A stretch of DNA of 64,000 nt from Candidatus Binatia bacterium (GCA_951813575.1 OX638375.1:1625042-1689041); one strand, 5' to 3'; shown: positions 39,973-55,488, counted from the first letter of the stretch. Notes: generated by a model from the sequence alone, not told the origin. Program-made: numbers and translations.

Positions 39973-41094
39973 CTACAGTCCGTAGAGCCGCCTCGGGTTG
40001 GCGTCCAGGATGGCGTCCTTGGCGGCATCGGAGATGTCGGTGCGCTCCCGCAGCATCCGCGCGGCAAAGCGTTCCCGGTCGCCGTGGGGCATGTCGGTGC
40101 CCATGACGATCTGCCCCTGCCCCACCTCGGCCATCACGTGCGGCAACAGCGAATCCTCGATCTCGGCGCTGAAGAAGAGGTTCCCCTTCTCGACATAGTC
40201 CATGGCCGGCAACGCTTGCTTGGGGACACACTCGGGGATGAACTTCAGCAGCAGCTCGCCCTGGTTCTCATAGCGGTGCTTCAGCCGGTCGAGCATGAAC
40301 GGCACCCACATGCACCCGGCCTCCAGGAACACCACCCGCATGTCCGGATGCCGGTCCAGGACGCCGCCGGCGATGAGCGAGGTGCACGCCATCAGCACCG
40401 GCATGTGGAAGGCGATGACGCCGGACGGATAGATGTGCGAGTAGAGGTTGTTCACCGACGGGCAGGACCAGCCCACGTGGACCCCCAACGCCAGGTTGTT
40501 TCCCTCCACGGCCTCATAGAACGGCAGCAGCGCGTCGTCGTCCAGCAGACGGTCTCCCGCGGTCCCCAGCACCATGACCGACACGGCTCCGAGGCTCGCG
40601 GCCTCGTTCACCGAGCGCACGGCGCCGTCCACGTCGTCGAGGTTCACCACCGCGGACCACTTGATGCGGTCGTTGCCGCCCAGCCGGTCTCCCAGCCAAC
40701 GGTTGTACGAGTCGCACAGAGCGGTGGCGAGAGGAACGTTGTCGGTAAGCGGATAGGCGAGAAAGAGCGTCGTGTACACCACCTGCACGGCGATCTCCTC
40801 CTCGTCCATGATCGCCAGCCGCTCGGGGATGTTGGTCAGCTCCTGGCTGCCGACGCTGTCCACCTTGCCCACCGAGTGTTTCGCCAGCTCGCCGTCGATG
40901 GTCAGGGGCGTTCCGAGGTTGTTGCAGCCCCGGCCCACCCGGCGGGGGAAGAGCTGCTCGTCGATCATCCAGTAGGCCATGCCGTCCACCCCCACCACCC
41001 GGGGCTTCTGGCCGCGGAACCTGGGGTCCAGGTACTTGTCGTCGAAAGTTTCCAGGCACTCTTCCACGTGGCCGTCAGCGTCTACACAGTCCAT
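39973..41094 (-). CDS. Amidohydrolase-2 (ACMSD/LigW-like metal-dependent hydrolase/decarboxylase) family protein, paralogue 1
   Basis: It has TIM-barrel metal-ligand motifs (VDADGHV...H...D). It is related to the proteins at 51479 and 55497. Confidence 0.7.
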   Translation of the reverse strand: MDCVDADGHVEECLETFDDKYLDPRFRGQKPRVVGVDGMAYWMIDEQLFPRRVGRGCNNLGTPLTIDGELAKHSVGKVDSVGSQELTNIPERLAIMDEEEIAVQVVYTTLFLAYPLTDNVPLATALCDSYNRWLGDRLGGNDRIKWSAVVNLDDVDGAVRSVNEAASLGAVSVMVLGTAGDRLLDDDALLPFYEAVEGNNLALGVHVGWSCPSVNNLYSHIYPSGVIAFHMPVLMACTSLIAGGVLDRHPDMRVVFLEAGCMWVPFMLDRLKHRYENQGELLLKFIPECVPKQALPAMDYVEKGNLFFSAEIEDSLLPHVMAEVGQGQIVMGTDMPHGDRERFAARMLRERTDISDAAKDAILDANPRRLYGL

Positions 41095-48536: not shown

Positions 48537-49352
48537 CTACTGTTCGACAAGATCCAGCAGGACCCCGTCCGGGTCCGCCATGGCGTGCTGGCCGATGACG
48601 CAGCCTTCGAGGTCGGCGCGGGTCATGGAGCCGAAACGGCCCGCATCCAGGTTGGCGGGCGCCGATTCGGGGGCCGCCTCGCTCAGCTCCTCGATCTCCT
48701 TCCGCGTCCGCTCCAGGTCTTCCACGACAAAGCCGATGTGGTCGAGTCCTTCTCGCATGCCCCGGTAGAGTGAGTTGTTGCAGGGACGCACCAGTAGCTG
48801 TACCTGGCCGTCGGTGACACAGAAGCTGCCGTCCGGGCCCGGCGCCTCGCCGACGTCGAGCTCGAACACCTTGTGATAGAACTCGGCGACCCGTTCGGGC
48901 TGCTTGGAGCGGATGGAGATGTGGCTGATCTGGCGCGGCTGGTCCCAGCCGTCCTCGAGGTAGCCTTCACGCACCTTGGCGACGCCCTTCTGTGAAATAT
49001 CGTATTGCGTGCCGCAGGGGTCGGTGCCGCGCGAGACCGAGAACGGCACGTGGGGAAGGCTCTTGGCCACCAGCAGCTCCGGATAGTCGTTGCGCATGCG
49101 CTCCAGCACCAAGGGTATCTCCTCCACCTCGAAGCCGAAGTGGTCCAGCCCGGACTGGTTCCCCGGGTGTTTCTGCAGCATGGCGAAGCCGATGACGCCG
49201 TCGCTGATGTGGCCGCGGTTGGGGTTGTAGTTCCCTTTCTCGTCGGTCATGCCGGTGGTGATCTTCTTCATGCCGAAGATGGTCTGGTAGAACCGGGCCA
49301 TCCGGTCCCAGTTCTCGGTGTTGAGGGCGATGTGCCGGATACGCGTCTTCAT
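48537..49352 (-). CDS. Two-domain VOC-superfamily protein (glyoxalase / extradiol dioxygenase-like)
   Basis: This is the lower 271 codons of ORF 48537..49562. Two VOC modules are present (IRHIALNT..., ISHISIRS...). Confidence 0.7.
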   Translation of the reverse strand: MKTRIRHIALNTENWDRMARFYQTIFGMKKITTGMTDEKGNYNPNRGHISDGVIGFAMLQKHPGNQSGLDHFGFEVEEIPLVLERMRNDYPELLVAKSLPHVPFSVSRGTDPCGTQYDISQKGVAKVREGYLEDGWDQPRQISHISIRSKQPERVAEFYHKVFELDVGEAPGPDGSFCVTDGQVQLLVRPCNNSLYRGMREGLDHIGFVVEDLERTRKEIEELSEAAPESAPANLDAGRFGSMTRADLEGCVIGQHAMADPDGVLLDLVEQ

Positions 49353-49509
49353 GCTCAACCTCCGTGAAGGTGCCTGTCGAACGTTGGGAATCAACCTTAT
49401 CACAACCCTGCCGGAGTTGGCGCGCCCTGTCCCACTCCTCGTGCGTTGTGGTATAAGGCAGCAACGCCGCAACCCGGCGGCAACACTACCAAGGAGCGAA
49501 GGAGTTTGC

Positions 49510-50397
49510 ATGAAGGTTTGCACGTATGACGCGAGGCAGGCGGGGGCGGTGGTGGACGACAAGGTCTATCCCATCGGGGCGGCAATGGTCGCCGCCGGGA
49601 TCCTGAAGGCCGACTACACCATGGTCCAGGTCATCGAGGCGATGACCGGCAACCCGGACGCCCAGTCCTGCGTCGACGAATGCATACGGTCCGGCGACTC
49701 GGTGCCGCTGGCGCAGGTGACCCTGCGGGCGCCCGTTGACAACCCCACCTCGCTGTGGGCCGCTGCCGCCAACTACATGGACCACCGCAAGGAGATGGAG
49801 ACGCGCATGGGCGGCGGCCACCAGGAGCTGCCGGACAAGGACGACCACATGTCCCAGGACTTCCTGAAGCCGGTGTCGTCCATCATCGGCCCGGACGGCA
49901 CCGTGATCATCCCCAAGGTCTCCCACGACGTGGATTTCGAGTGCGAGCTGTGCGTGGTCATCGGCAAGACCGCCCGCAAGGTCACCGAGGAGGAGGCCCT
50001 GGACTACGTGTTCGGCTACACCATCTGCTGGGACATCAGCCAGCGGGACCCCTGGGGCCGGGGCAAGCAGAACACCCGCAACATCCGCAAGGGCTTCGAT
50101 ACTTTCAGTCCGCAGGGGCCGTGGATCGTCACCAGGGACGAGATCCCGGAGCCGCAGGACCTCTACCTCAGAGCGTGGCACAACGGCGAGCAGGTCATGA
50201 CCTCCCACACCAGCGACATGATCTGCGGGGTGCGGGACCACATCCGCTTCCTGTCGAGCGTGGTGACGCTAAGGCCGGGAGACCTCATCACCACCGGCAC
50301 GCCCGCCGGCGTTCATACGCTGCTGGACGGCGACAAGCTGAGGGGAGAGATCGAGAAGATCGGCGTGATGGAACTCAACGTCAAGGCGGAGGCCTAG
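49510..50397 (+). CDS. Fumarylacetoacetate hydrolase (FAH)-family protein
   Basis: The protein starts MKVCTYD... and has FAH-fold metal ligands (E-x-E...D). Confidence 0.75.
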   Translation: MKVCTYDARQAGAVVDDKVYPIGAAMVAAGILKADYTMVQVIEAMTGNPDAQSCVDECIRSGDSVPLAQVTLRAPVDNPTSLWAAAANYMDHRKEMETRMGGGHQELPDKDDHMSQDFLKPVSSIIGPDGTVIIPKVSHDVDFECELCVVIGKTARKVTEEEALDYVFGYTICWDISQRDPWGRGKQNTRNIRKGFDTFSPQGPWIVTRDEIPEPQDLYLRAWHNGEQVMTSHTSDMICGVRDHIRFLSSVVTLRPGDLITTGTPAGVHTLLDGDKLRGEIEKIGVMELNVKAEA

Positions 50398-52606: not shown

Positions 52607-52688
52607 CGGGGGCAGGCCGAAACCGGGCGCCTCCCGCGGGTGCGCGCCCCCAGGGCACGGCCTGCTGCGATTCACGGGAGGCGCCACA

Positions 52689-53510
52689 GTGGCGGATTCA
52701 CAAGAGACCATGGGTGAGAGGGCGGCGCGGGAAGTCGGCGTGCTGCTGGGCAAGTGCGCGGCCGGGGAGGCGGAGGTGGCCGCGACCTACTTCAGCCGGC
52801 CGCGGCCCAGGGAAGACCACATCCGGTTTCTCATACAGCAGACCGGGCGGGAGCTGACCCGGGTGTTCCAGTTGGGCGGCCTGCTGGCCAACCAATTGGC
52901 CGGGCTGGGCGTCACCGTCGACCGGCACACCTACCTGGAGACCCTGGAGAAGCTCCACGAGGAAACCAACCATTACGTCATGTGCCACGACGTGCTGGCC
53001 TGGCTCATGGGCGAGCCTCCCTTCATCGGCGAGCTTCGGCGGTACGACATCTTCAATCCCGACCCGACCCTCCCGGAAAACGACGCCAGCGTCCAACTGT
53101 CCCGCGAGAAGAAGGCCATCGAGGACGAGCTGGCGGCGGAGGGGGCGCCCTGGGCGGCCCTGGTCGGGGACGAAGGGGTGCTGGAGGGCGGCGGCTCGGG
53201 CACGTTCTTCGCCTGCAGCCGGATCGGGGGCGGCGAGTTCGAACGCCGGCTGGCCGAAGCGATGAAAGTGGTCCTGGACGACGAGCTGCGGCACGGCGCC
53301 GACCAGTTGGAACGGTTCCACGAGCTGGAGTTGACCGAGGAAGACCTGGAGCGGATCAAGGAGTACGTCAAGCGGCACGGCAACGCGCGCGTGCGGTTCC
53401 GCAACGCCCAGTTCAACTATCCCCTGAGCGAGGAGCGCATGCGCGAGATCGAAGCGGGAGAGATCGAGCCGTTGTACGTCTGGGAAGAGGTCGCGCGGAG
53501 CGGGTCGTGA
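52689..53510 (+). CDS. Hypothetical protein with two E-x-x-H motifs ([15 protein letters not shown]); possible ferritin-like / di-iron fold
   Basis: The 273-aa ORF has no confident family match. Its stop overlaps the GTG start of kbl. Confidence 0.4.
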
Positions 53511-54697
53511 CGCACGCGTTCGTCAACGATCTCGCCGCACGAATCGAGACCCTCAAGGCCGAAGGCTTGTTCAAGCAGGAGCAGGTCCTCGCCTCGCCGC
53601 AACAGGGGGAGATCACCCTGGAGACCGGCGCGGGCTGCATCAATCTGTGCGCCAACAACTACCTGGGACTGTCCAATGATCCCCGGCTGATCGAGGCCGC
53701 CAGGAAGGCGTTGCGCGAGTACGGATTCGGCATGTCGTCGGTCCGGTTCATCTGCGGCACCCAGCTTCCCCACAAGCGGCTGGAAGCGCGCTTGAGCGAT
53801 TTCCTGGGGACGGAGGACACGATCCTCTTCCCCAGTTGCTTCGACGCCAACACCGGTCTGTTCGAGAGCCTCCTGGGCCCCGAGGACGCGGTCATCTCGG
53901 ATGCGCTGAACCACGCCTCCATCATCGACGGCGTACGCCTGTGCAAGGCGCAACGGTTCCGCTACGCCAACAACGACATGGCGGACCTGGAGGCGCGGCT
54001 CGTGGAGGCGCGGGACGCCCGCTATCGCCTGATTGCCACCGATGGCGTGTTCTCCATGGACGGCACCATCGCCGACCTGCCGGCCATCTGCGACCTGGCC
54101 GGACGATACGACGCCATGGTCATGGTCGACGACAGCCACGCCGTGGGCTTCGTCGGCGCCACCGGCCGTGGCACCCCCGAGCACTGCGGCGTTGCCGGGC
54201 GCGTGGACATTCTCACCGGGACCCTGGGCAAGGCCCTGGGTGGAGCCGCCGGCGGATATGTCTCGAGCCGCGGCGAGATCGTCGAGTGGCTGCGTCAGCG
54301 TGCGCGTCCCTACCTTTTCTCCAACACCCTCGCCCCGGTGATCGCGCAAACGGGCCTGACCGCCCTGGACCTCCTGACGGCCTCCACCGAGCTGCGCGAC
54401 CGCCTGTGGCGCAACGCGAGCCACTTCCGCTCGAAAATGACCGCCCTCGGGTTCGAGCTCCTTCCGGGCGAGCACCCCATCGTGCCGCTGATGCTGCGCG
54501 ACCCGAAGCTGGCGCAGGCCTTCGCCGACGCGCTGCGGGAAAGGGGCGTGCTGGCGACCGCGTTCTCCTTCCCGGTGGTGCCGCGAGGGCAGGACCGGAT
54601 CCGCGCCCAGATGTCGGCGGCCCACACCATCGAGGTCCTGGACCGCGCCATTGACGCCTTCGCCGTCGTGGGGCGCGGCCTGGACGTCATCCGGTAA
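53507..54697 (+). CDS. kbl: Glycine C-acetyltransferase (2-amino-3-ketobutyrate CoA ligase), alpha-oxoamine synthase family
   Basis: It aligns closely with E. coli Kbl along its length ([52 protein letters not shown]). It is 396 aa from the GTG. Confidence 0.9.
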
Positions 54698-54720
54698 GCA
54701 CCGGGAACAAAGGAGCGCGC

Positions 54721-55488
54721 ATGTTTTCTCTGAAGGGACACACCGCCGTCGTCACCGGCGGCGCCAACGGCATCGGCCTCGCCACCACCCACAGGCTGGC
54801 CGAAGCCGGCGCCAACGTCGTCATCGCCGACATCAACGAGGAGGCCGGTGTACGGGCGGCAGACGAGCTGACGGCAAGGGGCGCCGGCGCGCTGTTCGCC
54901 AAGACGGACGTCACCCGGGGCAGCGACGTGGATGCCCTCATCGCCGCCGCGACGGACCGCTTCGGGTCGTTGGAAATCCTGATGCCTTTCGCCGGGATCG
55001 GAATCGAAAAGCACGCCCTGGAAACCACCCGCGAGGAATGGGACCGGACCATCGCCATCAACCTTACCGGCAGTTTTCTGGTCATGCAGGCCGCCGGCCG
55101 GGTCATGGTCGAGGCGGGGTACGGCAGGATCGTGGCGATGGCCTCCATCTCCGGCATGCGGGGAGGTACCGGACGGACCGCCTACGGCGCTTCGAAGGGC
55201 GGCGTGATTACCATGACCCGTGTGATGGCCCTGGAGTGGGCCGGGACCGGGGTAACCGTCAACGCGCTGGCGCCCGGCCCGGTCGACACCGCCTTGACCC
55301 GGAAAATGCACGACGAGGAGACCCGCCGCGCGTATGACCGCGCCATTCCCATGCGCCGCTACGGCCTTCCGGAAGAGGTGGCGCACGCCGCCGTGTTTCT
55401 GGCGTTACCGGAGTCCGGCTACATCACCGGCGTCACGCTGCCGGTGGACGGCGGCTTCACCTCGAGCGGCGTCATCAAGCGGGATTGA
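54721..55488 (+). CDS. Classical short-chain dehydrogenase/reductase (SDR)
   Basis: It has TGGANGIG, NAG and YxxxK motifs. Confidence 0.85.
   Translation: MFSLKGHTAVVTGGANGIGLATTHRLAEAGANVVIADINEEAGVRAADELTARGAGALFAKTDVTRGSDVDALIAAATDRFGSLEILMPFAGIGIEKHALETTREEWDRTIAINLTGSFLVMQAAGRVMVEAGYGRIVAMASISGMRGGTGRTAYGASKGGVITMTRVMALEWAGTGVTVNALAPGPVDTALTRKMHDEETRRAYDRAIPMRRYGLPEEVAHAAVFLALPESGYITGVTLPVDGGFTSSGVIKRD

Follow-up and report, generated by a model that had tools for sequence, protein, structure and literature searches.

A Candidatus Binatia locus that may combine a predicted di-metal oxidase with a separable Kbl-SDR pair

Heme-oxygenase-like and ferritin-like di-iron enzymes catalyse unusual oxidations; N-oxygenation, C-C cleavage, desaturation, and the formation of alkenes and nitriles are among them. 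The heme-oxygenase-like enzymes (HDOs) hold their metals with three histidines and three (or four) carboxylates on core helices 1-3, and a mobile ligand-bearing core helix is one of their known traits; about a dozen only have been functionally validated, and the characterised ones act mostly on amino acids (PMC13108848). In BioE, which belongs to the ferritin-like di-iron oxygenases (FDOs), the ligands are E26, E53, H56, E125, E155, and H158 (spacing 27/69/30), and the gene adjoins bioF, an earlier example of a di-iron oxygenase that supplies an alpha-oxoamine synthase (PMC12704756). With regard to dehydrogenases, the L-phenylserine dehydrogenase of P. syringae is a classical SDR that acts on the beta-hydroxyl group (PMC2963168).

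The locus considered here lies in a 64-kb stretch of DNA (64,000 nt, hereafter the window) from Candidatus Binatia. It contains the gene of a 273-aa protein of an unmodelled family (UNK), followed by the genes of a glycine C-acetyltransferase (Kbl) and of a classical SDR. We lean, with some reserve, towards a composite plus-strand operon, in which an uncharacterised di-metal oxidase would stand beside a separable Kbl-SDR pair. The host is a sponge-associated Candidatus Binatia bacterium.

The locus and its flanking genes

Table 1. Features of the locus and candidate metal ligands of UNK, with positions counted from the first letter of the window.
Feature	Position	Strand	Basis or remark
Third Amidohydro_2 gene	39973-41094
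VOC/glyoxalase-fold protein, two-domain	48537-49562	-	Pfam Glyoxalase, two stretches
FAH-family hydrolase, 295 aa	49510-50397	+	Pfam FAA_hydrolase, E 3e-57; conserved upstream block
TctC/Bug-type periplasmic solute-binding protein, 323 aa	50454-51425	+	Pfam TctC, E 2e-21
AH2a, Amidohydro_2 (ACMSD-type superfamily), 375 aa	51479-52606	+	Pfam PF04909, E 5e-27
UNK, 273-aa protein, unmodelled family	52689-53510	+	predicted all-helical di-metal protein
UNK candidate ligand E55	52851-52853
UNK candidate ligand E92	52962-52964
UNK candidate ligand H95	52971-52973
UNK candidate ligand E166	53184-53186
UNK candidate ligand E199	53283-53285
UNK candidate ligand H202	53292-53294
Kbl, glycine C-acetyltransferase (2-amino-3-ketobutyrate CoA ligase), 396 aa	53507-54697	+	NCBIfam, 1FC4
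Classical SDR, 255 aa, NAD-type	54721-55488	+	Pfam adh_short and adh_short_C2
AH2b, second Amidohydro_2 protein, 368 aa	55497-56603	-	Pfam PF04909, E 1e-25; convergent with SDR
XRE-type HTH and cupin regulator, 204 aa	56888-57502	-	Pfam HTH_3 and Cupin_2

The UNK gene starts with GTG, 7 nt past the Shine-Dalgarno-like hexamer GGGAGG (52676-52681). Its third-position GC is 0.90, as in the adjacent genes, and it can therefore be considered coding. The GTG start of Kbl (53507) overlaps the UNK stop codon TGA (53508-53510) by 4 nt (GTGA); an overlap of start and stop had been stated in a preliminary description of this DNA. The classical SDR announced there downstream of Kbl is present as well, although it starts 23 nt past the Kbl stop and not 24 bp.

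Kbl scored 637 bits with the NCBIfam model NF005394 (cut-off 460) and 617.3 bits with TIGR01822 (cut-off 493), and stayed under the cut-offs of the BioF, SPT, and ALAS models. The previously claimed alignment with E. coli Kbl (1FC4) was reproduced and is full-length and collinear (residues 5-395 against 8-400, E 4.4e-165); the PLP-lysine motif GTLGKA occupies residues 238-243. Judged by the curated models and by this alignment, the protein is a genuine glycine C-acetyltransferase (EC 2.3.1.29).

The SDR matched Pfam adh_short (E 6e-55) and adh_short_C2 and has the motifs of a classical SDR, namely TGGANGIG at residue 12 and YGASK (Y155-x-x-x-K) at residue 155. Asp37, which follows strand beta-2, marks it as NAD-type under the established classification of classical SDRs. 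When compared with the known threonine dehydrogenase (Tdh) types, this 255-aa protein gave no match to ADH_N and just an under-cut-off match to Epimerase (E 0.008). It also missed the FabG equivalog cut-offs (NF004198, 235.6 vs. 296; TIGR01830, 223.7 vs. 297.75). Among solved structures, those nearest to it are generic FabG or polyol dehydrogenases.

Both flanking amidohydrolases scored far above the PF04909 gathering cut-off of 26.4 bits (95.8 bits for AH2a and 91.0 bits for AH2b). The closest solved structures are PtmU3 and LigW for AH2a, and ACMSD (E 1e-23), PtmU3, and LigW for AH2b. AH2a precedes UNK in 14/14 Binatia-type loci that extend far enough upstream, with gaps of 42-249 nt, and AH2b is present throughout the Binatia loci; at a further locus (L006), an AH2a homologue (37%) overlaps the UNK homologue. 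The presence of amidohydrolases on both sides had been pointed out before and is correct, but it is less striking than it seemed, since the window contains a third gene of this family, which is common in Binatia genomes. A conserved partnership between Amidohydro_2 proteins and UNK was considered and down-weighted. Such a gene lies within 8 kb of UNK in 6 of the 17 non-Binatia loci; of the 5 control contexts around SDR relatives, 3 likewise have one within 7 kb, and the window has three. All that stays suggestive is the direct adjacency, which was seen at L006, at L032, and throughout the Binatia loci.

As for the other neighbours, the FAH-family hydrolase matched maleylpyruvate hydrolase 6jvv (E 2e-44) and HpaG over the full length. 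Its gene and that of the VOC protein are syntenic across the Binatia loci, and the TctC gene is syntenic in most of them, being missing from L019 and L023. A sequence search of solved structures returned no relative of the VOC protein, whose real start codon probably comes later than the first TTG. Homologues of the XRE/cupin regulator (56-62% identity) also adjoin SDR relatives at L038/39 and L044/45. The Rfam scan of the 46-64 kb portion of the window gave no match, and the promoter and terminator scan gave background level only.

The UNK family and its predicted metal site

UNK matched no model in the Pfam and NCBIfam scans. Homologues were collected as 54 clusters by a word-indexed search and as 512 representatives by an exhaustive profile search (E <= 1e-3). 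UNK loci in genomes were scanned with the closer alignment set A3, and the metagenome scan with alignment A4 gave 11 loci only. When the UNK profile was compared with the PDB, the sole match was a designed four-helix bundle (E 1.4), on a glycine run. A lenient Pfam scan of 42 family members yielded weak matches to DUF455 in 5 of them (best E 0.012), such as that of P0048, whose residues 64-186 align with profile positions 81-192. We take DUF455 to be a member of the ferritin-like clan; a literature search on it gave nothing on function. Near some UNK homologues, genes with a sulfonate theme were found (TauE, an NMT1-type binding protein, luciferase-like monooxygenases, and a sulfotransferase); this theme was set aside as too heterogeneous.

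The E-x-x-H motif, reported earlier as occurring twice in UNK, is indeed present but matches at four positions (87, 92, 199, and 208). Composition-preserving shuffles of the protein averaged 1.14 matches (P(>=2) = 0.32); therefore, the count by itself is not above chance. The significant signal is the conservation of E92/H95 and E199/H202, rather than the number of motifs, and in fact these residues are kept in 77-78 of 78 diverse family members. With E55 and E166 they make up the candidate ligand pattern E55/E92xxH95/E166/E199xxH202, spaced by 37/71/33 residues. The six positions are kept in 72-78 of the 78 members (92-100%), which share only 20-40% identity. The family has only two invariant histidines, H95 (78/78) and H202 (77/78), and four invariant or near-invariant glutamates; position 195, seven residues ahead of H202, is occupied by Val or Ile. 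E166 sits within a glycine-rich, non-helical E-G-G-G segment.

Two independent AlphaFold models of the family (pLDDT 94.2 and 95.8) gave a helical bundle of the heme-oxygenase-like/ferritin-like kind, with the seven helices of the heme-oxygenase-like fold. TenA thiaminases, which are metal-free enzymes, come first among the structural neighbours, and the metal-binding CADD, HrmI, UndA, BesC, and ADO scored nearly as high; ferritin-like (FDO) structures ranked under the heme-oxygenase-like ones with both models. A Foldseek search with the UNK model gave no match at E <= 1e-3, and the fold call rests on moderate scores. Even at E <= 5, the family did not match Pfam Haem_oxygenas_2, TENA, or DUF3050 (PF14518, PF03070, and DUF3050), and the hhalign comparison with the canonical CADD-like PF14518 HDO family, built from the L003 gene, returned a probability of 0.2%.

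Since the helical bundle is combined with a conserved E/E-x-x-H/E/E-x-x-H pattern, it is a reasonable prediction that UNK is an oxygenase-like di-iron protein, and the ferritin-like or heme-oxygenase-like di-iron fold suggested in the preliminary description agrees with the models. Most likely, UNK binds two metals (Fe-Fe or Mn-Fe) through the six conserved residues and, with O2, oxidises a substrate that is a small carboxylate or resembles an amino acid. A non-redox role would be that of a metal-free TenA- or PqqC-like enzyme, or of a binding, storage, or regulatory helical bundle, with the glutamates and histidines contacting the substrate. The metal-free top neighbours, the lack of a sequence link to di-iron families (weak DUF455 matches in 5/42 at E 0.012; hhalign 0.2%), and the position of E166 in a non-helical stretch are in line with such a role. 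Nevertheless, we consider it highly improbable, because a duplicated E...ExxH with 37/71/33 spacing and near-total conservation is a hallmark of dinuclear carboxylate-bridged sites, CADD, HrmI, UndA, BesC, and ADO score close behind TenA, and a flexible ligand helix is known in heme-oxygenase-like di-iron enzymes (PMC13108848).

Gene order across loci and the Kbl-SDR pair

The order UNK, Kbl, SDR was found solely in Candidatus Binatia, where it is ancestral. The 4-nt overlap between UNK and Kbl occurs in 5 of the 11 loci with the full order, and in the remaining 6 the two genes are 45-46 nt apart; the gap between Kbl and SDR is 16-23 nt in 12/12 Binatia-type loci with kbl. At four of the 16 Binatia-type loci (L013, L015, L018, and L020) kbl has decayed in situ to debris, with UNK and SDR intact on either side of it. 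This deletion in place happened at least three times, always with both neighbours intact, and the SDR is intact at 16/16 loci, including the four that are kbl-less. In one Binatia genome (L023/L009), Kbl and SDR were relocated as a pair: UNK is with AH2a and AH2b, and Kbl-SDR lies 4.5 kb off, behind a TRAP transporter. None of the 17 non-Binatia loci of distant UNK homologues contained Kbl or a close SDR relative. Kbl is followed by the SDR in four different contexts; at L040-42 and L043, SDR relatives (72-74% identity) come directly after an 83-84% identical Kbl in otherwise unrelated neighbourhoods without the AH2a-UNK block.

The three genes had been proposed to form a module. This proposal does not survive the comparison, given that the order is confined to Binatia, the overlap is seen in 5/11 loci, kbl was deleted at least three times, and the 17 distant UNK loci are without Kbl and without a close relative of this SDR. 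In the best reading, the overlapping arrangement of UNK and Kbl arose recently and is specific to the lineage, and kbl is dispensable at this site.

It is true that translational coupling of UNK and Kbl at the 4-nt overlap (5 loci), as well as the close packing of the genes on one strand, would allow co-expression and therefore a shared pathway. In a single pathway, UNK would oxidise an amino acid or a related compound to a beta-hydroxy-alpha-amino acid, the SDR would convert it into a 2-amino-3-keto acid, and Kbl would release glycine and an acyl-CoA, so that the route would cleave oxidatively between C-alpha and C-beta; in the opposite direction, the same enzymes would form a biosynthetic module that condenses. 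The ancestral order, the same strand, the close spacing (4-nt overlap in 5 loci, 45-46 nt in 6), the amino-acid substrates of most characterised heme-oxygenase-like di-iron enzymes (PMC13108848), and the example of BioE next to bioF (PMC12704756) all speak for it. We nonetheless judge it rather improbable: kbl was lost at least three times while UNK and SDR stayed, Kbl-SDR left UNK in L023, L040-43 have Kbl-SDR without UNK, Kbl is never near the UNK homologues of the 17 loci outside Binatia, and Kbl scores as a canonical 2-amino-3-ketobutyrate ligase and not as a divergent alpha-oxoamine synthase. Distinctly improbable is a version in which UNK would be the first recognised case of a new class of O2-activating di-metal enzymes, with a heme-oxygenase-like scaffold and a 2-His/4-carboxylate site, and in Binatia would oxidise an amino acid, by hydroxylation or in another way, so that SDR and Kbl could cut the C-alpha/C-beta bond to give glycine and acyl-CoA.

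The recurrence of Kbl-SDR in four contexts makes it plausible that the NAD-type SDR is a non-orthologous substitute of threonine dehydrogenase. It adjoins kbl, which is typical, although not strictly defining, of L-threonine 3-dehydrogenase genes, and other SDR relatives are found in amino- or imino-acid contexts (Pro_racemase, DAO, Na:alanine symporter) and not among fab genes. Two of the four sampled non-syntenic relatives are without Kbl; relatives on plasmids of cultured organisms were uninformative (best match 52% identity). The eventuality, raised beforehand, of an ordinary FabG with no linkage to kbl did not materialise, as the FabG cut-offs were missed and the Kbl-SDR pair recurs. The earlier idea that the SDR replaces Tdh fared unevenly: the pairs found elsewhere, the joint move, and the NAD-type signature are in its favour, whereas the SDR was kept where kbl was lost. 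In particular, its retention in four kbl-less species would be unexpected if its sole product were 2-amino-3-ketobutyrate.

This retention, with the SDR intact at 16/16 loci, would fit an SDR that serves the catabolic genes around it, its substrate being a hydroxy-acid or ring-cleavage intermediate made by AH2, VOC, FAH, and UNK, with Kbl as an unrelated housekeeping passenger. The resemblance of the FAH protein to maleylpyruvate hydrolase and of AH2b to ACMSD-type decarboxylases makes a carboxylate-degrading pathway that needs a dehydrogenase plausible, and the generic FabG and polyol dehydrogenases nearest to the SDR fit such a role. We regard this as unlikely, though deserving attention: upon rearrangement, the SDR accompanied Kbl and parted from UNK, AH2a, and AH2b, SDR relatives of 72-74% identity directly follow Kbl in two neighbourhoods that are without the AH2a-UNK block, and further relatives lie in amino-acid contexts.

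Proposed roles and comparison with known systems

In the composite operon that we favour, UNK would be a cytoplasmic all-helical protein that binds two metals and performs the O2-driven oxidation of a small carboxylate or amino-acid-like compound, grouped in Binatia with the upstream AH2a and a catabolic block (VOC protein, FAH-type hydrolase, TctC binding protein, and AH2b). The Kbl-SDR pair probably splits threonine-like amino acids, as far as the sequences indicate. The SDR would act on L-threonine or on a similar beta-hydroxy-alpha-amino acid and oxidise it to a 2-amino-3-keto acid, from which Kbl, with CoA, would form glycine and acetyl-CoA.

The UNK family comprises at least 512 clusters, is covered by no database model, has a fold predicted with high confidence, and conserves a six-residue site; for these reasons it is a concrete, testable candidate for new chemistry. 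If the assignment of the pair is true, two types of threonine (or beta-hydroxy-amino-acid) dehydrogenase are joined by a third that is not orthologous to them, and it corrects the generic 'FabG-like' label on a widespread, tightly conserved SDR subfamily of sponge-symbiont genomes. A route through UNK, SDR, and Kbl, if true, would be a previously undescribed oxidative degradation of amino acids. As a lesson for annotation, a translationally coupled overlap of genes is not proof of a common pathway.

The pair resembles the E. coli-type kbl-tdh operon in having kbl first, the dehydrogenase second, and tight spacing, with a Kbl that is orthologous by score and full-length alignment. The predicted net reaction, threonine + NAD+ + CoA to glycine + acetyl-CoA, is also alike. 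It differs in that the dehydrogenase is a 255-aa classical SDR, neither the Zn-dependent MDR Tdh nor the GalE-like extended-SDR Tdh, and in that the SDR outlasts a decayed kbl. The GalE-like enzymes, for example that of Cupriavidus, have about 310-320 aa. By description, the SDR can be likened to L-allo-threonine dehydrogenase YdfG, serine 3-dehydrogenase, and L-phenylserine dehydrogenase, which are likewise classical SDRs (about 250 aa) and oxidise alpha-amino acids at the beta-hydroxyl group; its subfamily likewise occurs in amino-acid-related contexts. It departs from them in that its best solved relatives are generic FabG and polyol dehydrogenases. None of these three enzymes is known as a Kbl partner.

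As to UNK, it shares with the HDOs (UndA, CADD, BesC, SznF, HrmI, AetD, and PolF) and with the TenA/PqqC fold a single domain of about 250-290 aa. Its E-x-x-H and D/E-x-x-H, carried by two different core helices, are HDO-like features, and the lower-confidence, less regular E-G-G-G ligand segment recalls the HDO mobile core helix. However, the family has two histidines and four glutamates, against three histidines and three (or four) carboxylates in HDOs, and has no sequence-profile relationship to the HDO families.

When compared with the FDOs (RNR R2, aldehyde-deformylating oxygenase, MiaE, BioE, and PaaA), UNK differs in its third ligand, E166, which is not mid-helix, and in matching no FDO model of Pfam or NCBIfam; moreover, the UNK-Kbl linkage, unlike that of bioE and bioF, is not conserved. 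What it shares with the FDOs is the E/E-x-x-H/E/E-x-x-H arrangement with two histidines and four carboxylates, a spacing (37/71/33) that resembles that of BioE (27/69/30) and falls within the FDO-type range of about 30-40/50-90/30-35, and the weak DUF455 matches of its family. UNK is predicted to have a fold nearest to heme-oxygenase-like proteins, yet a ligand set typical of ferritin-like di-iron oxygenases, and because it would join the fold of one group to the ligand set of the other, it would blur the boundary between HDOs and FDOs.

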